Part shown: piece after piece, positions 1,131-62,970 of the stretch | Layout of the letters: each line of letters starts with the position of its first letter | Numbering within the stretch: the first letter of the stretch is position 1 | DNA from: Mobula hypostoma | Lineage: Eukaryota | Length of the DNA: 64,000 nucleotides | Direction of reading: 5' to 3' | Assembly (NCBI RefSeq): GCF_963921235.1 | Contig: NC_086108.1 | Coordinates: 91,204,001-91,268,000 of the forward strand | Program-made: the position numbers and the translations under genes | The notes under the pieces: model-generated | Told to the model about the DNA's origin: nothing | The model's database searches: none | What the model saw: only the letters and a program-made list of their open reading frames with translations

Positions 1131-2494
1131 TAACTGCTACGGATACCATATGTTTACAAAAAGAAACTAAATGTTAGCAGAGTAAAAATACAAAGGTTAG
1201 GGGAACATCAAAGGAAAATAAATAATTGCAAGAGCATTTGAATTGACAATTAGAAAAAAAGTGCATGTCTCTTTGGACAGAAATTTGGATGACGATTTAA
1301 GTGCCAGGACAAACCTAATTGAGATGGCAGGGTCCAAGCCCCAGATTGTATCAGAGCAACTGAACCTGATTCTCAGATGACAATGTAGGCACCGGACCAG
1401 ATAGGAAAAGTCAGGGAGTCGGAACTGGAGGCAAGGGACAGGCCTGCTCAGCTCGCTGCTCCGCTCTGCGTTGAACCAAACGTTTGGGGACAGATTCTCT
1501 TTGTGAACTTCAGTTCAGGACACTATTGCTTGCATTTATTGTTTGTATGAGTCTCTCAAAAGCAGAGGTGGAGGAGTATGCCTCATTAACAACTCTTCCT
1601 GGTGCACAAATATTTCAGTGCTGTCCCAAATCTACTCACCAGACCTGGAATATCTAGCAGTTAGGTGTCATCATTTTTACCTACCATGAGAGTTCTCCAG
1701 GGTCATTTTGGTAGCAGTATACATTCCACCTCAGGCCAATATCAATCAGGCTTTTGATGAGCTGAGCAATGAGATCAACATGCATGAAACAGCGCATCCT
1801 AATGCCTTCATCATCGTTTTGGGAGATTTTAATCAAACCAGTCTGAAAACATCACTAAGCAATTACTGTCAACAGATCACTTGCAGTGCTGGAGGAAACA
1901 ACACACTGGACCATTGCTACGCCATAACCAAGAATTCCTATCGTGCTATTCCACGCCCTCACTTTGGGAAGTCTGATCAGCTGGCTGTACTTCTACTCCC
2001 TGGGTATAGGCAGAGACTGAAGACTGCAGCACTAATAGTGAGGACCGAGAAGTTATGGGCAAGGGAAGCACAGGAGCTCCTAAAGGATTGCTTCGAATCG
2101 GTGGACTGGACTGTATTCATGGATTCATCTTCGAACCTGGATGAGTATGCTGCAGTTCTTACTGACTTCATTAAAACCTGTATGGATGACTTACTGTACA
2201 TTCCCAAAACAGATGGTACATCATCTGCTGAAGACTAGATCTGTGGCATTCAAGTCTGGCAACCCAGGCCTGTACCAGAAAATCAGGTATGATTTGTGAA
2301 AGGCTATTTCAAGGGCGAAGAGACAGTTTCGAACGAGGTTGGAGGTGACATCGGATGCACGACAACTCCGGCAGGGTTTACAAGACATTACTTCCTACAA
2401 ATCGAAACCCAATAGCATGAACAGCAGTGATACTTCACTACCAGATGAACTCAACGTCTTCTATGCCCGCTTTGAAAAGGAGAATACAACTACA

Positions 2495-2626
2495 AACAAC
2501 AGGAATTCTGCAGATGCTGGAAATTCAAGCAACACACATCAAAGTTGCTGGTGAACGCAGCAGGTCAGGCAGCATCTCTAGGAAGAGGTATAGTCGACGT
2601 TTCAGGCCGAAACCCTTCGTCAGGAC
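2495..2626 (-). mobile_element. 132-bp Penelope pLTR-derived insertion with 12-bp TSD
   Basis: TSD aatacaactaca at 2483-2494 and 2627-2638; near-identical to 44881-45012 and related to the ends of the Penelope element at 6117-7119. Confidence 0.9.
2592..2626 (-). ncRNA. Minimal type I hammerhead ribozyme motif, core intact
   Basis: Minus strand reads GUC-CUGACGA-AGGGUUUCGGCCU-GAAA-CGUC-GAC: CUGANGA and GAAA cores, stem I GUC/GAC, short stem II, palindromic ACGU stem III, GUC cleavage triplet. Confidence 0.75.
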
Positions 2627-5600
2627 AATACAACTACAGCTGTGAAGATCTCTGCTGCACCTGACGACCCTGTGATCTCTGTCTCAGAGGCCGATGTTAT
2701 GCTGTTTTTAAAGAGAGTGAAACCTTACAAGGCAGAAGGCCCTGACGGATTACCTGGTAAGGCTTTGAAAACTTATGCCAACCAAGTGGTGGGAGCATTC
2801 AAGGACAATTTCAACCTCTCACTGCTATGGGCAGAAGTTCCCACTTGCTTCAAAAAGGCAACAATTATTCCAGTGCCTAAGAAGAATAATGTGAGCTGCC
2901 TTAATGACTGTCGCTCAGTAGCGCTCACATCTACAGTGATGAAATGCTTTGAGAGGATGGTCATGACTAGACCGAACTTCTGCCTCAGCAAGGACCTGTA
3001 CCCGCTGCAACTTGCCTATTCCCACAGTAGGTCAACGGCAGACACAATCTCAATGGCTCTTCACATGGCTTTAGACCACCTGGACAGCACAAACACCTAT
3101 GTCAGGATGCTGTTCATCGACTATAGCTCAGCATTTAATACCATCATTCCCACAACCCTGATTGAGACGTACCTGGGCCTCTGTACCTCCCTCTGCAATT
3201 GGATCCTCGACTTCCTAACCAGAAGACCACAATCTGTGCGGAATGGTGATAATATTTCTCCATCACTGATGATCAACACTGGTGCACCTCAGGGGTGTGT
3301 GCTTAGCCCACTGCTCTACTCTCTATATTTGCTGACGATACAACTACTGTTGGTAGAATCTCAGGTGGTGATGAGAGGGCGTACAGGAGTGAGATATGCC
3401 AACTAGTGGAGTGGTGCCACAGCAACAACCTGGCACTCGATGTCAGTAAGACGAAAGAACTGATTGTGGACTTCAGGAAGGGTAAGACGAAGGATCACAT
3501 ACCAATCCTCACAGAGAGATCAGAAGTAGAGAGAGTGAGCAGTTTCAAATTCCTAGGTGTCAAATCTCTGAGGATCTAACCTAGTTAGATGCAGTTATAA
3601 AGAAGGCAAGGTAGCAGCTATAGTTAATTAGGAGTTTGAAGAGATTTGGTATGTCAACAAATACACTCAAAAACTTCTGTAGATGTACCATGCAGAGCAT
3701 TCTGACAGGCTGCATCACTGTCTGGTATGGAGGGGCTACTGCACAGGACCGAAAGAAACTGCAGAGGATTGTAAATCTAGTCGGCTCCATCTTGGGTACT
3801 AGCCTACAAAGTACCCAGGACATCTTCAAGGACCGGTGTCTCAGAAAGGCAGTGTCATTATTAAGGACTTCCAGCACCCAGGGCGTGCCCTTTTCTTGCT
3901 GTTGCCATCAGGTAGGAGGTACAGAAGCCTGAAGGCACACACTCAGCAATTCAAGAACATCTTCTTCCCATCGGCCATCTGATTTTTAAATGGACATTGA
4001 ACCCTTAGACACTACCTCACTTTTTTAATATATAGTATTTCTGTTTTCCGCACAATTTTTAATCTATTCAATATATGTATACTGTAGTTAATTTAGTTGT
4101 TTATTTATTATTATTAAATTATTTTGATTTTTTCTTCTAGATAATGTATTGCATTGAACTGCTGCTGCTAAGTTAAAAAATTTCATGTCACATGCCGGTG
4201 ATAATAAACCTGATTCTGATTTTTTTTTTCTCTCTGCACATTGAGTGTTTGATAGTCTTCCTTTTTTAATGGTTTTTTGGGATTCTTTGTTTCGTGGCTG
4301 CCTGTCAGGAGACAAATCTCAAGGTTGTATAATATTTACATACCTTGATAATAAATGTACTTTGTACTTTTAAAATTGGAACTTTTTAATAATAAACAAG
4401 AAAATAATATACATGTTAAAAGTTAAGTGTGTGTATATGTATCTGTCACACTAGCTAACACTAATACTTTACTGAAAATTGTAGAGAGCCAGAGTCTAAT
4501 GAGATTAAAGTTCTTAAGTAATTAATATTTTAAAAAAATTAGAGAATTTTTCTGGGATCAAGAGCTAAAAATTCCCTGGACCTGATTTCATGCACGCTAG
4601 GATTTCAAAAGAACTAGTTTCAGAGATTAGTTTTAAAATCAATCACACCTAAAAGTTAATCTTGATTTTTCTCCCCCCCCCCCAACACATTTCAAATATT
4701 TCAGGATTTGTCTAGCTTTTGTCATCTAACTGACATCTCATGAGTTCAAAAGCACACACTCTATTGTTGGCTGACAGTCGCTCACATGAAGTAATTTGTC
4801 AATATCCTGCCAGTTGACAATAGTAGAAAATTGAAGCATGCAAAGGAACATAGGGGCTACAAAGCAGTGTAGAGCAGCAGGCATGGAGTTTGACATGCCA
4901 CTATCTATTGTGTCACTCCAGTAGATCTTTTACATTTACTTCAGCTTGGGGTTTGTTATAGTTAGAGTCTTTGTTATAATTCACTCTGGGTACTAAATTT
5001 GCATGATTTTTAGTGGTTAAATAAATTTGGCTTTAATCTTCAGTTATAAAGTGATTTTCAGTTATATCTTTTCAGATGTAAGAAGCAGAATGGAAACTCG
5101 TCTCGCGTAGTATAGCACTGGCAGCCCATTTTGTATTCTCCCATATGTTCTATTTCATTAACTTTAATGGAAAAGAAAACTGAGCAGGAAAAGCTCAATT
5201 CACCATTGCCAGTTCTGTGCCGCTGTGCGAGGTGACTTTATATTAGTTTAGACTTATGAAAAGTCACAGCAAATCATATTTCGGAATTTTAGTTGCATAT
5301 CCGAAGAAGGTCAATATTTTTGGACATTAACCCTGGTATTGTCTCCACAGATACTTACTCACCTGCTGACTATTTCCAACTTCGTTGGATTGTACTTCTG
5401 GCTTTTGGATAAAAGTGAAACCCACATAGATTTTCATTTGAAATACTCTAAAAATTGATCACCTCAACATCCCCTTGTAATATCGGCAATTTAATATTCT
5501 GTTTTCCAGTAAGGCTACTTGCCTGACAGCCAAGTATTTTAATCATGTTTTCTGGGCTTTTCTGACAATATTTTGCTTACTCAGCTGTTAAACATGTTTC

Positions 5601-5654
5601 CTGCTGAGCTTTTTGTTGGAATGATTGCAACTGGAAGTGTAGCTCAGTAGTACA

Positions 5655-6060
5655 GCATAGAAAGATACATCACAGGAACAGGCCATTCAGCCCACAATAT
5701 TGTGCTGAACTAGCTAAAAGACAAATCAGAATCACTCTAGCACTAATCCCCCTTCTCTACACAATGTCCATAACCCTCCATTTCCATTACATCCATGTAC
5801 CAATCTAAATGTCTCTTAAAAGCCTCTAATGTATTTGCCTCTACCACCATACCAGGCAGTGCATTCCCAGCATCCACCAGTCTCTGAGTGAAAAAATTAC
5901 CTTTCACATCTTCTTTGAACCTACACCTCCACAGCTTCAATGCAAGCCCCCTGGTATTAGACATTTCAACCCTGGGAAACAGGCACTCACTGTCCACTAT
6001 ACCTTACCGCTCATAACCTTATAAACCTCTAACAGATCTCCCCTCAACCTCCACCACGCC
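5655..6060 (-). mobile_element. CR1 LINE 3' fragment
   Basis: ORF 5743-5997: LFPRVEMSNTRG...FFTQRLVDAGNALP; CR1 tail. Confidence 0.88.
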
Positions 6061-6207
6061 AGAGATGGCAAGTGTGTTTGAAAATGGTGGGAGATTAATA
6101 TAGATGCTGATTTCAAACACAAAATAATCTGCAGACGCTGGGATCAAAGCAACACTCACAACACGCTGGAGGAACTCAGCAGGTCGGGCAGCATCCGTGG
6201 AAACAAT

Positions 6208-6245
6208 GAGTCGACGTTTCGGGCTGGAACCCTTTGTCAGGACTG
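6208..6245 (-). ncRNA. Degenerate hammerhead motif (core CUGACAA)
   Basis: Minus strand reads cagtc-CTGACAA-agggttccagccc-GAAA-cgtc-gactc; G8 is changed to A. Confidence 0.6.
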
Positions 6246-7026
6246 AAGAGAGAAGGGGCAGAGGCCCAATAAAGAAGGTGGGGGAGGGTTGGAAGGAGAA
6301 GGCTGGTAGATTCAGTAGAAAAAACAGTAATTTGAAAGACAAAGGGGTGGGGGAGGGGAAGCAGGAAGGTAACAGGCAGGAAAACAACGGGTAGTAGAAG
6401 GAGGCGGAACCATGAGGGAGGTGATAGGCAGCTGGGGGAGGGGGCAGAGTGAAATAGGGATAGAGGAAGGGAGGGGGAGGGAATTACCGGAAGTTGGAGA
6501 ATTCTATGTTCATACCATGGGGCTGGAGGCTACCTAGACGGTATATGAGGTGTTGCTCATCCAACCTGATATGAATACCCCATTCAGATATGTCCATCCC
6601 ACTTCAACTCTACTTCTCATTCCCATTCAGATATGTCCATACATGGCCTCCTCTACTGCCATGATGAGGCTAAACTCAGGTTGGAGGAGCAACACCTCAT
6701 ATACCGTCTGGGTAGTCTCCATCCCCTTGGTATGAACATAGAATTCTCCAACTTCCGGTAATTCCCTCCCTCTCCCTTCCCCTATCCCTAATTCACTATG
6801 CCCCCTCCCCCAGCTGCCTACCTCCTCCATCATGGTTCTGCCTCCTTCTACTACCCATTGAGTTTTCCCCTATTCCTTCTTCACCTTTCCTGCCTATCAC
6901 CTCCCTGCCTCCCCTCCCCCACCCCTTTATCTTTCCCCTTACTGGTTTTTCACCTGGAACCTACCAGCCTTCTCCTTCCCACCCTACCCCCCACCTTCTT
7001 TAAAGGGCCTCTGCCCCTTCCCTCTT

Positions 7027-7064
7027 CAGTCCTGACGAAGGGTTCTGGCCCGAAACGTCAACTC
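7027..7064 (+). ncRNA. Minimal type I hammerhead motif, core intact, stem I mismatch
   Basis: cagtc-CTGACGA-a-ggg-ttctgg-ccc-GAAA-cgtc-aactc; predicted cleavage after C7059. Confidence 0.7.
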
Positions 7065-7957
7065 ATCGATTCCACGGGTGCTGCCTGACCTGCTGAGTTC
7101 CTCCAGCATGTTGTGAAAAATGCTGATTTCAATTTGTTGGATTCAACAGCAAATACAATATTGACATCAGAGTATGAAACTATTTTAAAATTTGTTCTGT
7201 GTTCTTTTCTGATTCAGGAAACTGCATTCACATACCTACTCGCAAACAGAGGGATTACTATATACATGATAAACCACAAGAATTAACTTTATTAGAGTTT
7301 GGTGCAATACAGGAAGGAAAACAAATGATTGATGAAGTAGCAGTACGGGAAACAAACTGATATTTATCATCTACTAAATGAGCTGATTTGTAGAATGCCA
7401 GAGGGAATCACAGATCCAGCAAACTCTCTCTAAATGTCCTTGCTTCTATTTCCAACCTTAGTGCTAGCATCAAGCCTATGAGAAGATTCCCCTTTTGCAC
7501 AAAGTAATTACCCCTTTTTGTACCTATCAAAACTCAAAAATAACTCTTTCCCCAGTACTTTTCAATAATAAAGTTAGAGTCTCCTTATGTACAGACACTC
7601 CTGTGCCTATTGTCTCTTTATGGACATTCAGTCAATCTATGTATATTAACTGTCTTATGCATTTATACTTATTGTGTTTTTTATTATTGTGTTCTTTAAC
7701 TTAATGGGCTTTTTGGTGCTGCAATGGACCCGGAGTAACAATTACTTTATTCTCCTTTACACTTGTGTACTGGAAATAACATTAAACAATCTTCAGTCAT
7801 GTATAAGGCACCATTTGGCACCAGCACCTCCACCATGACCTCACCTTCCCTTGGCAAACATGTATTCATAATAATCTACCCTCAAGGCTGTAGACTTGAA
7901 CTCTTGACTTTCTCAAAACAATCCCTCTCCAAGCTAACACCATTTTGCCTTACGTAA

Positions 7958-12869: not shown

Positions 12870-13014
12870 CCTTGTTTAGTCCTGAACAAGGGTCTCAGCC
12901 TGAATTTTGACTGTTTATTCATTTCAATAGATGCTACCTGTGTTGCTGAGTCCCTCCAGAATTTTGTGTGTGTATTGCTTTGGATTTCCAGCATCTGCAG
13001 AATCTCTTGTGTTT
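12870..13014 (+). mobile_element. Solo Penelope pLTR-derived insertion with 10-bp TSD, inside a Rex fragment
   Basis: TSD acaaccttaa at 12860-12869 and 13015-13024; decayed hammerhead 'agtcctgaacaagggtctcagcctgaattttgactg'. Confidence 0.8.
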
Positions 13015-39100: not shown

Positions 39101-39773
39101 TGTCACGAACCCGACCATTAATTCTCCATTTTCTCCTAATTTCCTTTGATGGCGACACACCTGATTTTCATCAACACCTGCAGTATAAGAACCCCGGCTT
39201 TGCACACACTAGTTGCCAGATCGTTGGTTTTGCCAGTGCGGTAATTAACGTTTCCCGGCCACTTAGGTTTGAGTGTTCTAAGTTTTGCTTCAGTACCGAG
39301 ATTTACCTGTGAAACTCAGTCTCTCCGTGTCAAGGTAAGTTTTCTAAGTACTACTCCAGTTCCGAGATTTACCTGTGAAACTCAGTCTCTCCGTGTCAAG
39401 GTAAGTTTTCTAAGTACTACTCCAGTTCCGAGATTTACCTGTGAAACTCAGTCTCTCCGTGTCAGGGTAAGTTTTCTAAGTACTACTCCAGTTCCAGGGT
39501 TTACCTGTGAAACTCAGTCTCTCCATGTCAAGATAAGTATTCTAAGTTCTACTTCAGCACCGAGGTTTACCTGTGTAACTCCGTCTCTCCATGCTAAGAA
39601 AAGTTTTGTCTGCCGCTTTCCTTTCTACACTCTGTGTCAAGATAAGTTCAGCCTATCTCCTGCTTTCCTGCACTCCCTCCTGTTTGCCATTCAGCGCTCA
39701 CGCCCGCGTCTGCATCCTAACTCAATCTCCATGCCTGTGTCCTGCGTTTGGGTTCGCCTCGTTCATTGCAACA
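39101..39773 (+). mobile_element. Solo LTR (TGTCACG...TGCAACA) inserted in the Tc1 element
   Basis: TSD cctgc/cctga at 39096-39100 and 39774-39778; TATA-like gtataag; 3' motif cctgcgtttgggt shared with the LTR at 13196-14319. Confidence 0.85.
39275..39610 (+). repeat. 66-bp tandem repeat, ~5 copies, inside the LTR
   Basis: Units start at 39296, 39362, 39428, 39494 and 39560. Confidence 0.95.
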
Positions 39774-40571
39774 CCTGAGGTCTCTGAGATAGATACTCAA
39801 CCCACCCCATCTGGCACCAACAATCATTCCATGGTCAAAGTCACTTAGATCAATCATATTTTTCTCCATTCTGATATTTGTTTTGAAGAACAACTGAATG
39901 TCTTGACCTTGCCTGCGTGCTTTTATGCATTGAGTTTCTGCCACGTTATTGGTTGATCAGATATTTCCATTAATGAGCTGGTGTACAGCTGTACCTAATA
40001 AGGTGGCAACAGAGTGTAGTTGTAGCAGTGTTTGGTGGTAATCTCGTAATCCCTTCCATGCTTCTTTCCATAATCCATATAAGACATTCCTTTTCTAAGC
40101 TTCCAAAACTAATATACTTGGAAGTTCCTCCCTAGTTTTCATATTTCTAAAATTCAGTTTTGTTTCAGAGACATGGAATAATTCAAAAACTTTCTATATA
40201 GTTGTTTAATGTGACTGGCCAGGGATAAATTCTCAGTAATACCGCTTTTCTGGTGATTATAAAATGCTCTTCATTTGCTTAATTATTAAAGCCTATTAGT
40301 GGATGCCATTGGAGGGCAGTATTATCTTAATCTCATTACAATATTAACCATAATACAACATGCATCTTCCAAATGAATAAGATCTGCAATATTTTAAAAT
40401 GAATGCTGAAAGTTCTACCAAATATGCTGAGATCCACAAGTCAAAAACTCTGTAGAAACCTAACTACTGGATCCATTTAGGATATATGTCTAATTCTATT
40501 GATGTCAGCTTCTATATTAGTGAAAATAAATATACACAGCAGCCTTCAAAGATTAGCATGCTGTGTAGAGA

Positions 40572-42804: not shown

Positions 42805-42930
42805 TCCTGATGAAGGGTCTTAGCTCAAAACATCAACTATTTGTTACCCCCCACAGAAGCTGCCTGACCTGCTGAGTTCCTTCAACATTTTGTGTGTGTT
42901 GTTCTGAGTTTCCAGCATCTGTAGAATATC
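42805..42930 (+). mobile_element. Solo Penelope pLTR-derived copy with decayed hammerhead
   Basis: cctgatgaagggtcttagctcaaaacatcaact...gctgcctgacctgctgagttcc. Confidence 0.75.
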
Positions 42931-43140
42931 CTACATGTAAAAAATATGAGAAACTTATCCAAAATATTGGCAAAGTTGGGTAATTTCTGATACAAGCAGA
43001 AAGAGGGAAGGAGTCATCGGAAGTTGGAAAATTCATTGTTGACTCTGGCTGGCTGCAACATGCCCAGCTGGAAGACGGATTGTTTTCCTCAAGCTTGCAT
43101 TGATACAGAAAGATCAGAGTAGGTCTGGGATGGTGAATTG

Positions 43141-43355
43141 AAGCAACACACACAAAATGCTGGAGGAACTCAGCAGGCCAGGCAGCATCTATGGAAAAAA
43201 GTGCAGTCGACGTTTCGGGCCGAAACCCTTCAGCAAGTCTCATAACCCGAGACGTCAACTGTACTTTTTTCTAGATGCTGCCTGGCCTGCTGAGTTCCTC
43301 TAGCATCTTGTGTATGTTGCTTGGATTTCCAGCATCTGCAGATTTTCTCTTGTTT
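43141..43355. repeat. Head-to-head pLTR pair (~78-bp arms) within an older Penelope remnant (about 42950-43560)
   Basis: 43141-43218 is nearly the reverse complement of about 43245-43322; mutated hammerhead core on the minus strand at 43204-43238. Confidence 0.85.
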
Positions 43356-44783
43356 GAGGTGAATTAAAGTGGTAACTAACCAGAAGGTCAAACTTACATA
43401 GGTTCTGTGCAAAGTGGTCACCCGACTTGCACTTGATGTTTCCAATATAAAGAAGGGCACAATATGAGCATCAAATATATCTTAGAAGCGCAACTGAATT
43501 GTTTCTTCAGCTGGAAGAATGGGGAGCGGTAGCTGGGGATGAAAGCATAGATCAGGGAGTCACAAACAAAGTGATAGCTTCCAAATGCTGAAAGGGGAAG
43601 GGAGCAGAAAATATATGCTCACCCCTCCAGACAAATCCACAACAAAGAATGGGCGGAATCTCACAGGTTGGAGGCAGGGTCTCCTGGACACATTGTGCAT
43701 CTTAACAGGGAAAATCTTCATCCTTTACTCCCCTCCTACTGGAATTTTGAAGGCGCATTCTAAACATTCCTGATTTTCTCCTTAAATCCAGGTAACGCTG
43801 GATTCCATATTTCCATGACGATTGGCTTAGTACTGAAAATGCAAGGACTCTAATGACACCATGTGGTTAAAAAGTAGGTTCCAATTCCTATTGCTGACTG
43901 AAGCTTAGCATGTTCAGCCTGAGCTGCTTTGTGAATAGTGGCTGCAGAGAGAGTGAGAACTCCCTCTGTGGCCATTTCAAGGGCTTCAGAGCAGACCAAA
44001 TACATGAGTCAGTGTGACCAGACAAAATGGTGAGACAAGAAGTTGCGCTGTAGCATTTCCTCCAATAGCAGATACCTACAGTATTAAAATATCTATCAGA
44101 AGAATTGACTTTCAAACTCACTCACTGCCATTTTGCTTTTCAATCTTCCCAATATTTGTAGTCTCTACATGTCCCCTGAGTACAGCATTTATGGTTAAGA
44201 GGCTTAGCTACATTTTCACTTTCTTTCTGCTCCTGAAGGATAGTTCTTTACAGTAAGCTTCCTATTTATAGTCTGCCACGGTTTATAAACTGGATTTTCT
44301 TGCAATACAGGGAAAGCTCATATATAAGAAAGGCATCAGGAGACAGATGATAAAATTAAATTCAATGCTGTTCAGTAGCTTTCATATTTTAATATTGTTC
44401 CCTGCTATACATTTCCATTGACATGCCACATACAAAGAGGCAGTGACTAAAGTGCAGGGAGCAACGCGCACATTAATCACAAGGGTGATTGAACTTGTCA
44501 ACTCAATACTCACTATTGATGGAGAATGAGTGAGGCTAGGGAAGGCAATATTTTAGTTACAATCCACAGAGTGTTTAACAGTGTTTCACCTTTTCTAGAC
44601 ATCGGGATGTTCCTTAAAAAAATGTTAGGTCATAGAACAGAGAAAGTAGAAGTGAAATGAAGATTGGTGAATCGTGAAGTTTGACTCGGAGACAGAACAA
44701 CTTGTATAAAGTAATGCATTTATACAAACTCCAGTTCTGCCTAAACCAGAAAAAAAATATTAAATTGAGAAATCTGAAGCATA

Positions 44784-44877
44784 CACTCCGTGGCCATTTT
44801 ATTAGGTACACCTATACACCTTTTTGTTAATACAAATACCTAATCAGCCAATCGTAGCAGCAACCCAGTACATAAAT
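44784..44877 (+). mobile_element. Tc1 terminal fragment, same family as 38763-40016
   Basis: TA-cactccgtggccattttattaggtacacc...taatcagccaatc. Confidence 0.8.
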
Positions 44878-44880
44878 GTC

Positions 44881-45012
44881 AACACGAGGAATTCCGCAGA
44901 TGCTGGAAATTCAAGCAACACACATCAAAGTTGCTGGTGAACGCAGCAGGCCAGGCAGCATTTCTAGGAAGAGGTACAGTCGACGTTTCAGGCCGAGACC
45001 CTTCGTCGGGAC
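44881..45012 (-). mobile_element. 132-bp Penelope pLTR-derived unit; hammerhead core mutated to CCGACGA
   Basis: Co-linear and near-identical to 2495-2626, with the same end points. Confidence 0.88.
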
Positions 45013-45716
45013 TTCAAGATCTAGATGTTCTTGTACATCAGTCACTGAAAGCAAGTATGCAAGTACAGCAGGCAGTAAAGAAAGCTAATGACATGCTGGC
45101 CTTCATAACAAGGGGAATTGAGTATAAGAGCAAAGAGGTCCTTCTGCTGCTGTACAGGGCCCTGTTGAGACCACACCTGGAGTACTGTGTGCAGCTTTGG
45201 TTTCCAGATTTGAGGAAGGACATTCTTGCTATTGAGGGAGTGCAGCGTAGGTTCACAAGGTTAATTCCCGGGATGGCGGGACTGTCATATGTCCAAAGAT
45301 TGGAGCGACAGGGCTTGTCAGAAGGCTGAGAGGGGATCTTATTGAAACATATAAGATTATTAAGGGATTGGACACACTGGAGGCAGGAAGCTTGTCCCGC
45401 TGATGGGTGAGTCCAGAACCAGAGGCCACAGTTTAAGAATAAGGGGTAGGCCATTTAGAACGGAGTTGAGGAAAAACTTTTTCACCCAGAGAGTGGTGGA
45501 TACATGGAATGCTCTGCCCCAGAAGGCTGTGGAGGCCAAGTCTCTGGATGCATTCAAGAAAGAGATGGATAGAGCTCTTAAAGACAGCGGAATCAAAGGT
45601 TATGGGGATAAGGCAGGAACTGGATACTGATTGTGGATGATCAGCCATGATCACAGTGAATGGTGGTGCTGGCTGGAAGGGCCGAATGGCCTACTCCTGC
45701 ACCTATTGTCTATTGT
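45013..45716 (+). mobile_element. CR1 3' fragment
   Basis: QVQQAVKKAN...RPHLEYCVQ...FFTQRVVDTWNALP; (ctattgt)n tail. Confidence 0.92.
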
Positions 45717-47220: not shown

Positions 47221-48789
47221 ATAAATCTCCCGGACCAGATGGAATGCACCCACATGTTCTGAAGGAACTAGCTGTGGAGATTGCGGAGGCATTAGCGATG
47301 ATCTTTCAAAAGTCGATAGATTCTGGCATGGTTCTGGAGGACTGGAAGATTGCAAATGTCACTCCGCTATTTAAGAAGGGGGCAAGGAAGCAAAAAGGAA
47401 ATTATAGACCTGTTAGCTTGACATCGGTGGTTGGGAAGTTGTTGGAGTCGATTGTCAAGGATGAGGTTACGGAGTACCTGGAGGCATGTGACAAGATAGG
47501 CAGAACTCAGCATGGATTCCTTAAAGGAAAATCCTGCCTGACAAACCTATTACAATTTTTTGAGGAAATTACCAGTAGGCTAGACAAGGGAGATGCAGTG
47601 GATGTTGTATATTTGGATTTTCAGAAGGCCTTTGACAAGCTGCCACACATGAGGCTACTTAACAAGAATTACGGGAAAGTTACATACGTGGATAGAGAGT
47701 TGGCTGATTGGCAGGAAACAGAGAGTGGGAATAAAGGGATCCCGTTCTGGTTGGCTGCCCGTTACCAGAGGTGTTCCACAGGGGTCCGTGTTGGGGCTGC
47801 TTCTTTTTACATTGTACATCAACGATTTGGATTATGGAATAGATGGCTTTGTGGCTAAGTTTGCTGACGATACGAAGATATGTGGAGGGGCCGGTAGTGC
47901 TGAGGAAACAGAGAGTCTGCAGAGAGACTTGGATAGATTGGAAGAATGGGCAAAGAAGTGGCAAATGAAATACAATGTTGGAAAGTGTATGGTTATGCAC
48001 TTTGGCAGAAGAAATAAACGGGCAGACTATTATCTAAATGGGGAAAGAATTCAATGTTCTGGGATGCAACGGGACTTGGGAGTCCTTGTACAGGATACCC
48101 TTAAGGTTAACCTCCAGGTTGAGTCGGTAGTGAAGAAGGCGAATACAATGTTGGCATTCATTTCTAGAGGAATAGAGTATAGGAGCAGGGATGTGATGTT
48201 GAGGCTCTATAAGGCGCTGGTGAGACCTGACTTGGAGTACTGTGGGCAGTTTCGGACCCTTTATTTAAGAAAGGATGTGCTGACGTTGGAGAGGGTACAG
48301 AGAAGATTCACTAGGATGATTCCAGGAATGAGAGGGTTAACATATGAGGAACGTTTGTCTGCTCTTGGGCTGTATTCCTTGGAGTTTAGAAGAATGAGGG
48401 GAGACCTGATAGAAACATTTTGAATGTTGAAAGGCATGAACAGAGTGGATGTGGCAAAGTTGTTTCCCATGATGGGGGAGTCCAGTACGAGAGGGCATGA
48501 CTTAAGGATTGAAGGGCACCCATTCAGAACAAAGATGTGAAGAAATTTTTTTTAGTCAGAGGGTGGTGAATCTATGGAATTTGTTGCCACGGGCAGCAGT
48601 GGAGGCCAGGTCATTGGGTGTATTTAAGGCAGAGATTGATAGGTATCTGAGTAGCCAGGGCATCAAAGGTTATGGTGAGAAGGCGGGGGAGTGGGACTAA
48701 ATGGGAGAATGGATCAGCTCATGATAAAATGGCGGAGCAGACTCGATGGGCCGAATGGCCAACTTCTGCTCCTTTGTCTTATTGTCTAA
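47221..48789 (+). mobile_element. Young CR1 LINE RT and 3' end, same subfamily as 19607-22178
   Basis: ORFs 47202-47858 and 47725-48423, nearly identical in protein to 20643-21407 and 19974-20609; a small deletion causes the frameshift. Confidence 0.95.
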
Positions 48790-49949: not shown

Positions 49950-50690
49950 TAGATGCTATTCCTCTCCTTTCCAAGTATGAAAGATTTGAGTCTAAACCCC
50001 ACTCTCAATAGACGAGTGTTCTGGAGCAATACTGGAGAAGACTGTTGTCCTTCAGATCAGATACTAAAACAGATGTTCCATGGATGTTCAAAGAGATCAT
50101 GCACCATTTCGTTGAAGGGCAGGAGAAACTTGCTGAGTGGTTCGGAATATAAAACATCGAACAGTACGGCACAGTATAGGCCATTCAGCCCACAATGTTA
50201 GGCTGACATTTTAACTTACTCCAAGATCAATCAGACCCTTCCTTCCCACACACTTTGGCTAGTGTTTCTCCTTCAATTAAATTGCTAAAATTATTTGCCT
50301 AGCATGATCTCACACATTGTGCAAACCACTGCACTACAGCACGGTAGCATAGTGGTTAGTACAACGGTTTACAGTACCAACAACACCGTTTTATTTCCTG
50401 TTTGCTGTCTGTAAGGAGCCTTTACATTCTCCCTGTGACCATGTGGGTTTCCTCCAGGTGCTCTGGTTTCCACCTACAGTTCAAAGATGTACTGGTTGGT
50501 AGGTTAATTGGTCATTGTAAATTGTTGTGGTTAAATTGGGGGATGCTGGGCAGTGAGGTTCAAAGAGTCGGAAGGGCCTATTCCATGTGGTAGTTCTAAA
50601 TAAGTAAATAAATAAATTGTTACTGGCAGGATCTTGCTACGTTCAAACTGAGTACCACATTTCCCAAAGTACTTCATTGGGTATAAATGC
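49950..50690 (+). mobile_element. Old Deu-domain SINE (SacSINE1/AmnSINE-like), fragmented (about 49950-50140 and 50620-50690)
   Basis: 'tgtccttcagatcagatactaaaacag' resembles the Deu core; L2-like tail 'ggatcttgct...aaagtacttcattgg'. Confidence 0.5.
50337..50615 (+). mobile_element. tRNA-derived V-domain SINE
   Basis: cacggtagcatagtggttag; V-domain 'ttctccctgtgaccatgtgggtttcctccaggtgctctggtttcc'. Confidence 0.85.
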
Positions 50691-51379
50691 AAGACATTCT
50701 GGAGATGTTGGAAATCAAGAGCAACACACGCAAAATGTTGAAGGAACTCAGCAGGACAGGCAGCATCTATGGAGAGGTATAAACTGTTAATATTTTGACT
50801 GTTTATTCCTCTCCATTGATGCTGCCTGACCTCATTGGGTAGGAAGAACACCCTGATCAGAAGTTAAGTGTAAGCCTTCCTTTGCTTCAACCTGCTTTAG
50901 AATATATGTGTCACATAACCTTCTGGAAAGGAAGAGGAGCTCAGTAAGATTAAGCTTGATGAATATCAATACTTTTAGCACAAATAATATTATTCTGCAG
51001 TCACATTATAATTATGTGCCATGCATTGTGCCTGGACCTCCTGACATTCATGAGAAAGAAATACATTTTCTGTAGTTGGAGAAATGGTTGGAGGCCCAAA
51101 GTATTTTCAGAGAAAACACCCATGCAATAGATTTGGCAAGTTGCCAGCACTAAATGACATGTACTTTATTCTGCACTCCCTGGGCAGTAATCTAGAAGGG
51201 AAAATTGGCTGCCCTCTATAAAATCAATAGTCTGAATCTCTGGTATGTTTTATAAATTATAACTTCCTCTCCTTTATAAAGAGGAAGTCAATTTCTTTTT
51301 CTGTAGTATCACTGCCTTTTGTTCTAGCCTTGGCTCATTGCCTGGTGAAGAACCCTCACACATTATGGACTCCACCCTG

Positions 51380-56559: not shown

Positions 56560-57100
56560 GCAACACACACAAAATGCTGGAGGAACTCAGCAGGCCAGGC
56601 AGCATCTATGGAAAAAAAAGTACAGTCGAAACCCTTCGGCAGCACTGGAGAAAAAAAGGTGAGAAGTACATTTGAAAGGTCGGGGAGGGGGGTGGTAGAG
56701 AAATGCCAGGCGATAAGTGAAGCTTGGAGGGGGAGGGATGAATTAAAGAACTAGGAAGTTGGTTGGTGAAAGAGACAGAAGGCCATTGCAGAAAGAAAAA
56801 AGGCGGGGAAAGAGCACCAGAGGAAGCCAATGGGCGGGCAAGGGGATAACATGAGAGAGGGACAAGGGGATGGGAATGGTGAAGTGAGGGGAGGCATTAA
56901 TGGAAGTTTGATACATTAATGTTCATGCCATCAAGTTGGAGACTACCTAAATGGAATATAAGATGGTGTTCCTCCAACCTAAGTGTGGCCTTATCCCAAA
57001 AGTGGAAGAGGCCGTGGATGGACATATCGGAATGGGAAGTGGAATTAAAATAGGTGGTCACTGGGAGAACCCACTTGTTCTGACGGATGGAGCGTAGATT
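56560..57100 (-). mobile_element. Penelope-like element 3' fragment (GIY-YIG C-terminus and pLTR)
   Basis: ORF 56897-57118: LPVTTYFNSTSHSDMSIHGL...LRLEEHHLIFHLGSLQLDGMN. Confidence 0.88.
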
Positions 57101-57739
57101 CTGCACAGTATTAGCCACTTCAAAAGGAGTTTTACAGCTGGGTCGAGGAAAACATAGAAAAAAAAGGTGTGTATTAATCTATTGTGTTAGCAATAATATT
57201 TAAATCATATTAAAGTGTATTTATAGGGCTTTATATCATTTTTTACATTATAACTACATAATTGATGTGTTATTTCATCTTTAATAGTCTGAATGCTTCT
57301 GAACATCAGTGACTATCAAAGCATTAAAAAGCTTCACCATCTGTCAGAAGGTTTTCTCAGCTGTTCCGTGGGAAGGCCTTGTTTTAACCTTGTTACATGA
57401 CCTGATTCAGTTGTGTGAAGCTCAAAATTCTGGCCAGTTCAGTAAACAACCTGAACAGTACATGGGAGCGGTAGGTCCCACTCAGAGCAATCCAGTCTGT
57501 CATTTCACAGAACAGGTGATGAAGCAGGGAGCAAACGTCAAGAGGGCCACGGGGTAGTCAATGCAAAAGACTTTCAGGAGATCTTTGATTGTACAGAAAG
57601 AGACAGCCAACTGGAAGTGCTCTTCGGAACATGGAGAATGTTGGAGTTTCTGTTGAAGATGGCAAGAAAAGTAGCATGGATTGTTAGGTTACCTCTTTGC
57701 TATTTGTAGGATTTTTTTGTAAATGAGTTGGTCAGTCAA

Positions 57740-58240
57740 CATCTATGGAGAGTTATAAAGAAGATGGTGGAGGGAGGGGAAAGAATACAAGGTGTCAGGC
57801 GATAGGTGAAAGCAGGTGAGGAGCAAGGTGGATAGGTGGGGAAGGGGGGAACAGCTTCATCGAGTACTTTGCTCCATCCATCATGAAAGGCAGAATTTCG
57901 TGGCTGCCACCAATTTTAAATCAAATTCCCACTCCCATTTCAATATGTTGGTCAATAGTTCCTTCTAATGTTGCAATGCGGCCAAACTCGAATTGGTGGA
58001 GCAACATCTCATTTTCCATCTGGGTAGTCTCTAACCTGATAGCATGAACATTGACTTCTCTAAGTTCTGGTCATTTCTAGCCCTCCGCTTTCTTTCTTTT
58101 TCCATTCACCATTCCAGCTGCCCTCTTAGGCTTCTCTTCTCCTCATCTGTCCATCTACTGCCTCTCCTTCCCTTTCTCCTATGGTCCTCTCTCCTCTCCT
58201 ATAAGATTCCTTCTTCTTCAGCCCTCTACCTCCTCATACA
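57740..58240. mobile_element. Old Penelope remnant with inverted pLTR
   Basis: LELVEQHLIFHLGSL...SMNIDFS on +; purine-rich inverted arm upstream. Confidence 0.7.
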
Positions 58241-60480: not shown

Positions 60481-61578
60481 ATCATCTTATGGGAAGTGGT
60501 ATCTATTATCCTATTTGCATTTGTAGCAAATTAAAACACATATACGTAGATAAATGTAATCAGAAAATTACATGGATGAGCAGATGGCTGGAAGTGAATT
60601 ACCGATGCACGTAAGACTGCGTGATGTTTTGGATCCAGTATGTTCATGAGTGGCACAGTAATGAGAACACATTCAAATCCCAAAACCAATAACTAACATC
60701 ACACACATCTGGAATTCAGCCCCAATTGTCCTGTTATTTTGTGCAACGTAAACAGGATACTCTATATTCCATCATAACAAAGATACGAAAGTACACAGAA
60801 ATAAGAGTGCTGCTTAGGAAGCCAGTAATAGGGATGAATAATGAGCAACTGATGTTTGTGTTATAAAGAAAAGGGAATGCTCTGTTTGTTTTCTGATGTA
60901 TAGACTACTGACATACAGGATTATGTGTATAAATTTCCAGTGAAAATTCAACATAAATGTAAGTATTTTTCTAATACATGGAGTCTTAGAACTACAAGTT
61001 CTAATTTGTAGTTTATGCTTCACTGTTACAGATTATGAAAATAAGCATTAAGGGCAAAGGAGGGGAAAAATCATGAAAATGTACAAGGGAGCTTGATCAA
61101 TATGTGTGAGATTCAGATTAAGAATGCCCTTTGTGAGCTGTGGCTGCCATTATGACAACACAAGTATGAGTTGCTGTGGGTGTCAAATTAGCGATAGCAT
61201 TAGTGACTATGGACTATCAATTCCCCAAAACTATGCAAAAATGTAGACCATCTCTGAAATGATGCTGCTATGAGTTTGGAACTGTATACTCCTGCTAAAG
61301 TTCTTCCTTTAACAAGCACATGTTAACAAATGTTAAAACAATAGGAAGGAAGATCTTGAACTCTTCTTAGAGCAATCTTTAACTAAATACAGGATAATAG
61401 CTAAGTGGATATTATTGCTGAGCATCTACACATGTTCGAGGAACTTGGAGTGTTTTCAACTCTCCGTAGTCTATATATCATAGAGTTTTTATATGCCTTC
61501 ATTAAAGGAGACTAAATGGATGACTTTGTTTTCCCAAGTCCTTGCTAATTTAAAAGTCAGTCATTTACAATAATCAAT

Positions 61579-61873
61579 AACTCCACCATGGACAGTCCCA
61601 ATTCCAGCTGCAAAAGGAGGAGAGTTGACTATGGGGCTTGCAATCCCATCCCTTAAATACCCAGAGCTACAGAAATGCCAACAGAAGTTACGAAGACCTC
61701 AAACTTGGGAGAGAAAGGATCTTTGCCTAGAAGGCATATGAAGTTGTGTGTGAAAGGAGATGCCACGGGGTCAATCAAACTTCTATCGGTCCAGGACAGA
61801 AGACACACTCCAATATGGGTGATAGGCTTAAGAAGAAGATATGCTACTTTCAATGGATTCAGATAATTGCCAT
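61579..61873 (+). mobile_element. Bipartite RTE-derived short element
   Basis: Same 5' motif and 'caggacaga...gtgataggcttaagaagaaga' end as 32203-32453. Confidence 0.75.
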
Positions 61874-62970
61874 CGTGGCTTGCTGAGTGAAGAAAGTCTG
61901 AAGAAAGTGGTATCACCAACAATAATCTCTTAGCGCACTGGAAATAGAAGAGATAGCCGATGCTGGAATCTGGAGGAAAACACAAAATTCATCTGGTCAG
62001 GCAGCATCTATGGAGGGAAATGGGCAGTCTATGTTTTGGCTGAGACTCCATTGAAAATGTCTGCTGACAATTCACAAAAAGGATAGAAATAATGTAAATA
62101 AAGAAATGTCTTAAGAAGTGACAGCTGTTGCAGGTTTGTTGAACATAAGGCTTGACTAAGTTCTTGACTGACTAATTTGGCTGAAAACCATGCAGAATTA
62201 ACAGAATAATTTAATGACTGTAGTGCAGTTGATGATGCGTGTGTGGATTTTCTGAAGTGTTTGATACAATATATTTTAAGGCACATTAGTAATTTTAAAC
62301 TCTGTGGGATACAAGGGGACATGTAAATCTAGAATGGAAATTTGTTTGAAGATGGTAAATAGAGAGTATTGTGTCTGTACAACTACATATCAAATAAATA
62401 AAGGCTCGTGCTTGGAAATGAAGTTAACTTGTATACTCGCGTTGCAGAGAGCAACAAATCAAAGCACATGGGTAAGTTATCAGTCAATAACTAGCACTAA
62501 GTGGAATCATTGTGCTAAAAGAAATAGATCTGTACACTACACTTCCTCCCCCTTCAGATTAACGTAACATAAAACTGTATATGTAACAAAACATTCAACT
62601 TCCCTTTAGCAGACTATATTCAAATAAACAAGCTTTCACAACAAAAGTGTTTGCTTGATATATTTTTAAATAACAGTCCATAACTAACTTCACTATACTA
62701 AAGATTCAGTCTTTTGGGGGGCACTCAGGATAGCACTTCTGGACCTGTGGAGTGGCATCAGGTTTTGCAGGTGTCTTCTCAAAGACAGCTTTCTCTGTTG
62801 GAGGTGTCATGTTGCTGTTAGTAACATGATCATCACTGAGAGGTAAGTCCAGTGAATGCAATGTGTCTGTCTTGTTGGATGCAGACAGCCGAGGTGTGTT
62901 CTATGGCTGGGCATCTAGTATCTGGTCCCCATGATGTCTCCTTGTATGATCTCCAGCATCCACTGTGTAC

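Follow-up and report, generated by a model that had tools for sequence, protein, structure and literature searches.

Insertions of endonuclease-positive (EN+) Penelope-like elements (PLEs) that are truncated at the 5′ side and keep a pseudo-long terminal repeat (pLTR) have been described with a GIY-YIG domain upstream, a hammerhead near the 3′ end, a tail on one side, target-site duplications (TSDs) of 8-13 bp and a variable point of truncation (PMC3846280, PMC8557442, PMC11167929). The minimal type I hammerheads of metazoan PLEs possess CUGANGA and GAAA boxes, an extra base between positions 9 and 10.1 and palindromic positions 15.2-16.2, lack helix III, and are mostly found as dispersed single copies (PMC4209133). 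In this work we analyzed 64,000 nt of the Mobula hypostoma genome (contig NC_086108.1, positions 91,204,001 to 91,268,000; the window), which include a 132-bp insert at 2495-2626 that is the terminal module of an EN+ PLE. The copies of this PLE in the window show the traits of the published insertions, but most of their 5′ junctions fall in a 44-nt hammerhead interval and the solo copies start at its 5′ edge. We consider it fairly probable that this PLE end module has a preferred 5′ stop at the edge of the ribozyme in which cleavage is not involved.

Two other kinds of sequence resemble the insert. Like short interspersed nuclear elements (SINEs; PMC8969392), it is short, non-coding, present in very high copy, bounded by TSDs, and has a 3′ end in common with an autonomous partner; unlike them, it has no tRNA- or 5S-derived head and the whole unit is PLE sequence. 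Non-LTR retrozymes (PMC7761336; bioRxiv 10.64898/2026.07.22.740005) are also non-coding, contain a type I hammerhead, are related to the PLE pLTR and are likely mobilised by PLEs, but they are tandem repeats processed to circular RNA, whereas the insert is a TSD-bounded solo unit with its ends away from the cut site. The element class, the motif, the tail and the inverted pairs are thus already described. The 5′ clustering at the hammerhead edge is apparently new, in that we found no paper with an account of solos starting there in full-text searches, which exclude subscription papers and Repbase entries.

The insert and its parent element

The insert and its surroundings comprise the following features.

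1690-4221, plus strand: host long interspersed nuclear element (LINE) copy encoding an endonuclease and reverse transcriptase (RT), interrupted by the insert (open reading frames (ORFs), frames, RVT_1, 3′ loose ends at 4221)
2483-2494, plus strand: left TSD copy, 12 bp, exact match to 2627-2638
2495-2626, minus strand: solo PLE terminal module, 132 bp (hammerhead, downstream region and tail), from sequence comparison
2495-2528, minus strand: optional tail of about 31-35 nt, found in 7 arms and missing in arms 43140 and 56560
2512-2577, minus strand: possible, conjectural 8-bp stem closing the region 3′ of the ribozyme (2577-2570 with 2519-2512)
2593-2626, minus strand: minimal type I hammerhead motif, by motif reading, architecture as in PMC4209133; activity only predicted
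2627-2638, plus strand: right TSD copy, 12 bp, exact match to 2483-2494

The 132-bp unit is a genuine insertion, and the perfect 12-bp TSD reported in the initial annotation was confirmed. The 12-mer occurs only twice in the window, at 2483 and 2627; the chance of such a TSD is about 5e-5 over 625 registers, and a 12-bp match was reached at 1 of 600 random positions with the same slack. The five bases preceding the two TSD copies, which on the right are the end of the element, match at four positions, and this suggests that microhomology may have helped seal the 5′ junction. The reading frame of the LINE, which we take to be Rex1/Babar-like, is in register across both flanks in translation, with the RVT_1 match downstream of the insert.

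The minus strand of the insert starts GUC-CUGACGA-A-GGGU/UUCG/GCCU-GAAA-CG-UC^GAC, which can be read as stem I (2626-2624/2595-2593), CUGACGA (2623-2617), an extra A (2616), stem II (2615-2612/2607-2604), GAAA (2603-2600) and the palindromic CG (2599-2598) to which helix III is reduced. The predicted cut lies between 2596 and 2595, 31 nt into the insert. Where an intact core starting the minus strand at stem I had been annotated, the start and both boxes were found as claimed, but the 10.1-11.1 pair is G-U and not G-C. This G10.1-U11.1 pair and a 4-bp stem II distinguish the copy from the published minimal PLE hammerheads (PMC4209133), to which it is otherwise alike in boxes, extra base, palindrome, missing helix III and dispersed single-copy occurrence; cleavage is here only predicted. 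Both core boxes and the full stem I were kept in one of the seven copies checked, that at 2495-2626, whose palindromic duplex has a predicted energy of -10.3 kcal/mol. Rfam gave no matches at E≤10 in 2450-2680, and none of its hammerhead models matches the motif. The folding z-score of the unit was -1.57 (17 of 200 shuffles were equally good), and RNAalifold produced no consensus fold, with no covariation found in the unit. The 8-bp stem was paired in 90% of cells, but with no two-sided changes and no excess over shuffles; it is a possible candidate for a protein-binding or RT-start structure.

Three long copies in the window, at 6117-6569, 6579-7119 and 56560-57112, run upstream of the hammerhead through a segment of 245-272 nt with 78-81% pyrimidine into a broken reading frame. 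These copies and the head-to-head pairs had been overlooked in the initial annotation. Their peptides are 68% (the sole match among 16 candidates) and 85% identical to a 422-aa M. hypostoma protein, P0001, which is annotated as a PLE RT-endonuclease and has RT-like motifs and a GIY-YIG match (E 4.6e-4; 20.9 bits, under the Pfam cut-off of 22.6). Because the long copies carry the module downstream of a P0001-like GIY-YIG C-terminus, the insert is the end module of an EN+ PLE, and the earlier suggestion of a Penelope-derived, Penelope-mobilised unit was borne out. Other features of EN+ PLEs are also present: the minimal hammerhead near the 3′ end, the optional tail, the TSDs and, in three TSD-bounded pairs, inverted copies with the tail at one end. 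A CX2-5CxxC linker between RT and endonuclease marks the Neptune clade (PMC8557442). A CX4CxxC linker was seen by eye in P0001, and the source is probably a Neptune element, as judged from this protein; the fragments in the window do not extend to the linker. Pfam found no families on three short window peptides, and no full-length element lies in the 64-kb window. The anole PLE ORF starts in the hammerhead core, but here the core reads ACG and no frame is kept across subfamilies. The region was also considered as an ORF N-terminus and dropped, the subfamilies being open in different frames.

At the 3′ side, seven arms end at a common tail end and two arms end 31-35 nt earlier. This position was also visible in contigs of sequencing runs. 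The runs X2 and X3 represent M. hypostoma or close kin: a contig of X2 matches the unique stretch 4338-5695 without substitution and one of X3 with 21. At 2493, each of the two DNA runs had a main row of loose ends that continued into long unrelated flanks (286 contigs with agreement 0.42 in one, 284 with 0.41 in the other; median 255), and run X1 had a loose end at 2528. EN+ PLEs carry an optional tail of 30-40 bp (PMC3846280, PMC8557442), which in the anole PLE results from internal initiation of the RT at two sites, about 111-118 nt past the hammerhead core (PMC11167929). Here the tail end lies 126 nt after the equivalent core position. The recurring 3′ end is thus the published PLE tail, set by internal RT initiation, and needs no special explanation.

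Position of the 5′ junctions

Junctions were numbered taking G at 2626 as +1, so that the cut site is +32, and starts were assigned by hand. A profile built from 10 window stretches gave 20 matches, 15 of them at E<0.01. Of 13 boundary pairs tested for TSDs, five had TSDs of 8-13 bp. The copies are the following.

6117-7119, no single strand: head-to-head pair of long PLE 3′ ends; 13-bp TSD (6104-6116/7120-7132); tail on left arm only
12870-13014, plus strand: solo copy with exact 10-bp TSD (12860-12869/13015-13024); starts at -9; core decayed
42805-42938, plus strand: solo copy; starts at +2; no TSD; GAAA box broken
43140-43357, no single strand: head-to-head short pair, joint inside the hammerhead (arm starts 0 and about +14); 8-bp TSD (43132-43139/43358-43365)
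44881-45013, minus strand: second solo copy; starts at 0/+1; no TSD; core mutated (CCGACGA); from alignment and TSD test
50684-50831, no single strand: head-to-head short pair, joint close to the palindrome at the cut site (arm starts about +23 and +30); 10-bp TSD (50674-50683/50832-50841)
56560-57112, minus strand: long PLE 3′ end lacking the tail; GIY-YIG C-terminus present, hammerhead shortened by a 13-bp deletion
61950-62058, minus strand: old solo copy; starts at about +7 (uncertain); no TSD; profile E 1.4e-9

The five solos start at +1, 0, -9, +2 and about +7, and a sixth, weak one (E 0.96) at about +2. The arms of short pairs start at 0/+14, +23/+30 and +2/+7, and four long arms at -90, -325, -450 and -450. 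In total 12 of 16 arms start in -10..+34, which under a constant truncation rate has P 9e-7, or 1.5e-4 if exposure is counted from +34 only. After removing five old or weak arms the count was 8 of 11 (P 3e-5; 5e-4 with the conservative exposure), and when each insertion contributed a single arm it was 7 of 9 (P 1e-4; 2.5e-3). Not included in the nine-insertion set are the 5300 solo and the 41026 pair, which fall in the hammerhead interval, and the 57730 pair, which falls outside it; with all 12 insertion events included, nine have their junction in the hammerhead. Two pieces of ORF end that lack a hammerhead (43003-43095 and 57924-58221) were left out of the counts. Among solos alone, five of six start in -10..+8 (P 3e-6; 3e-5). 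Random 5′ truncation, the outcome that the initial annotation had set against its proposal, is therefore rejected in the 64-kb window, the constant-hazard model having failed in all sets. None of the six solos of the window starts at the cut site. This agrees with the earlier remark that the ends do not fit insertion of a self-cleaved monomer: solos start at the 5′ edge of the hammerhead and not at the cut. One pair arm (50792-50799) starts near the cut site, where the palindrome makes the junction ambiguous.

Three other copies had been claimed to recur with the same length or to start near the ribozyme. The copy at 44881-45012 aligns with the insert over 132 of 132 bases (93.9% identity, eight differences), but its ends are not independently bounded: it has no TSD, its best exact flank match is 4 nt, unrelated repeats adjoin it on both sides, and the core carries a mutation. 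It is flanked by the repeat-end copy 44782-44876, which together with 39922-40018 represents two copies of one repeat end, presumably Tc1-like. The copy at 12870 does have the exact 10-bp TSD, but starts 9 nt before stem I with a decayed core. That at 42805 starts close to the ribozyme, with a broken GAAA box and no TSD (best match 6 nt, within the random range). Only two solos, 2495-2626 and 12870-13014, thus have a TSD. The eight extra bases heading copy 12870 were considered as the remnant of a tandem's tail and rejected, one-mismatch matches being found elsewhere too in three of three long arms.

The arms of the pair at 6117-7119 (6117-6569 and 6579-7119) contain the GIY-YIG C-terminus, the pyrimidine-rich segment and the hammerhead. 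The pair at 43140 is nested in an older PLE ORF-end fragment (window 42982-43400), a PLE-in-PLE insertion. In the pairs 6117-7119 and 43140-43357 the tail-less arm extends further 5′ than the tailed arm, which disfavours a simple fold-back of one cDNA; priming from both nicks followed by joining of two cDNAs would account for the asymmetry. DNA pattern scans for further copies found none in viral contigs and none in prokaryote genomes. Five metagenome loci from the scan were judged to be chance (42-72% GC; one weak profile match, E 0.0017).

Origin of the 5′ end

In the model that we favor, insertion would be carried out by the PLE's own GIY-YIG nickase and RT. The RT would prime at the tail and synthesize about 130 nt before it reaches a preferred stop at stem I, most likely because the template RNA begins there, with an Inr (initiator)-like A just before it. 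Priming on the first, 5′-proximal copy of the signal would yield a short run-off cDNA and a precise solo unit, and priming on a downstream copy would yield the long 5′-truncated copies. Alternatively, the stop could be due to fold- or protein-induced stalling of the RT at the ribozyme; within the model, we place the RNA start somewhat above an even chance and stalling somewhat below it. Run-off at the RNA 5′ end is also favored over splicing because splicing would leave a common exon on the solos, and none was seen. Neither self-cleavage nor a SINE master gene would be required. In the anole, the RT of the PLE initiates internally, at the tail of the RNA, and mainly uses uncleaved RNA as its template; hammerhead mutants did not change insertion in vitro, and no RNA-seq reads were found to end at the cut (PMC11167929). 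With uncleaved RNA as main template the mismatch between ends and cut site is no longer puzzling. More tentatively, the solos may be run-off cDNAs comparable to 'strong-stop' products, whose ends mark the capped 5′ end of PLE RNA at the first base of stem I. As the RT initiates internally, truncated PLE copies with the upstream segment, of which there would be tens of thousands, could each be transcribed from this site and feed precise 130-nt templates.

The sequence at the edge was inspected in the long copies.

7022-7034, plus strand: hammerhead 5′ edge in a long copy, a pyrimidine tract followed by CAG (motif scan)

The edge reads pyrimidine tract-CAG-TCC, which is at once Inr-like, TCA(+1)GTCC, a 3′ splice acceptor and stem I. 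The Inr and the other motifs scored are consensus sequences. Two of the three long copies have an Inr-like match at A0; in two of three, a W-rich 7-mer located between -27 and -31 ranked among the top four (at -29 in copy 7022-7034); the acceptor matched in three of three. The segment 6758-7029 (plus strand), between the PLE stop codon and the hammerhead, is 80% pyrimidine and has GT...AG bounds, in which it resembles the pLTR intron retained by other PLEs. PLE start sites and the 5′ intron lie in the pLTR (PMC2377424, PMC8557442).

Contig depth bears on the abundance of the module. In both DNA runs, in which contig counting was saturated, the summed contig depth over the insert exceeded the unique level about 4 x 10^5-fold, which is to be read as 'very high copy' and not as a copy number; over the upstream segment of long copies it was 2-6 x 10^4 times that level. 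The depth of hammerhead plus tail relative to upstream was 2.2-5.7x in two DNA runs and 10-71x in two runs guessed to be RNA (X1 and X17), of which X17 was flagged as probably DNA, so that the higher ratio is not evidence of a small RNA. Position 2626 was a main row of loose ends (398 and 276 contigs; agreement 0.40 and 0.37), with short loose parts (median 34 and 50) whose consensus starts purine-rich, like long copies. We read these as a mixture in which over half run into long PLE copies and the rest are flank junctions. No empty-site joint 2494-2639 was among the joints listed (best 15 of 2171), and no loose end at the cut site among those listed (best 24 of 7821).

Several observations weigh against our model. 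The breakpoints are manual assignments, and TSDs bound no more than two of the solos; copy 12870 begins at -9, which is 5′ of the RNA start that we propose. Upstream regions align poorly across subfamilies (scores 12-15 versus 7-10 for unrelated flanks), so that a long copy of some age without a TSD might have been taken for a 'short' one. Members of other subfamilies that map on the conserved part only (loose ends at 6203) confound the depth ratios, and contig depth equals neither expression nor copy number. At the edge, the AG is equally well explained by stem I pairing, which it extends, or by a splice acceptor, and the Inr consensus is loose. The RNA 5′ end would be placed from sequence and contigs and not from transcript data, and the start site of Drosophila virilis Penelope lies upstream of the intron, not at the ribozyme (PMC4209133, PMC2377424, PMC8557442). 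Finally, a single origin of the short copies is not rejected: in a tree of 10 copies the short/long label changes twice, and one origin has p-AU 0.106.

This last result is compatible with a separate SINE-like family, in which one or a few solo copies turned into source genes with their own or a neighboring promoter and are copied in trans by PLE proteins and the 5′ end is inherited. Such a family, one of the ideas of the initial annotation, was not borne out, since long versions exist and the 3′ end is the PLE tail, and we regard it as unlikely while keeping it as a rival. It gains from copies 2495 and 44881, sisters (100/99 support) that are 93.9% identical and have the same ends, from internal priming, by which SINE-like RNAs need no defined 3′ end (PMC11167929), and from known non-autonomous PLE derivatives such as Chlamys MRC1 (PMC8557442). 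It loses from the 20-25% divergence and several sequence types of the short copies, from the 95.7% identity over 70 bp between short arm 43140 and long copy 56560, and from the loose parts at 2626, which are short against a median of 255 at true flank ends and resemble long copies. No tRNA-, 5S- or 7SL-derived head was found (no Rfam matches at E≤10), and the unit is colinear with the PLE from its first base. The retrozyme-like origin also put forward there, in which a tandem array gives a self-cleaved circular RNA that is reverse transcribed and the solos are its monomer offspring, is very improbable. The type I hammerhead and a size near the reported range are in its favor, as are the proposed PLE link and the reported monomers (bioRxiv 10.64898/2026.07.22.740005; PMC7761336), but the 18 TRF rows include no tandem of the unit, there was no head-to-tail joint among the joints listed (best 15 of 2171), and the ends are neither circularly permuted nor at the cut in a module that is colinear with PLE 3′ ends.

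A splice-defined end has little probability. Under this explanation the pyrimidine-rich segment is a pLTR intron, and either the RNA is processed at the acceptor or the RT is blocked by factors bound there, so that the cDNA would carry no PLE sequence beyond the ribozyme edge. The segment has 78-81% pyrimidine, ends in CAG in three of three long copies and starts with GT in two of three, helix I marks the end of the intron in D. virilis (PMC4209133), and copy 42805 starts exactly at +2; against this, the six solo flanks examined share no upstream exon, and copies 45013 and 43240 retain the AG. Slightly less probable still is that truncation is random and that the clustering arises from small numbers and from easier detection of the module than of the fast-evolving upstream region. 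In its favor are four arms of long or intermediate length, the abundance of long copies and the weak upstream similarity across subfamilies, but the constant-hazard model was rejected in every set tried, the sequences flanking 2626, 45013 and 12870 can be recognised as other repeats or as TSDs, and the 42805 flank has 5% pyrimidine versus 78-83% in long copies.

Other features of the window and implications

Some features of the window are unrelated to the module. At 61574-61628 (plus strand) there is a weak twister-P1 match (31 bits versus a gathering score of 67; E 0.01 in the whole window) with an ATG at about 61675 downstream, which may be a truncated twister from the 5′ terminus of a non-LTR retrotransposon, such as is mentioned for RTE elements in PMC7761336. 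A long near-perfect inverted repeat at 994-1124, with weak miRNA-precursor matches far under gathering scores, is probably a miniature inverted-repeat transposable element or a fold-back element. A 66-bp minisatellite (4.8 copies, 91% matches) occupies 39272-39590, and a very weak U6-like match at 48258-48349 (plus strand; 22 bits, E 0.42), inside a CR1-like LINE, is probably chance.

The life cycle of PLEs and the role of their hammerheads are open questions (PMC8557442, PMC11167929), and a genome with perhaps 10^5 such inserts keeps a natural record of the points at which PLE cDNA synthesis begins and ends. If the solos were indeed strong-stop-like products, amplification on the scale of SINEs would take place without a SINE master, and uncleaved hammerheads would spread as passengers. 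If the 5′ peak holds genome-wide, uncleaved RNA would be the main template in vivo, and the RNA start or a strong RT stop would be located at stem I. Many solitary minimal hammerheads in animal genomes would then be explained without retrozymes.

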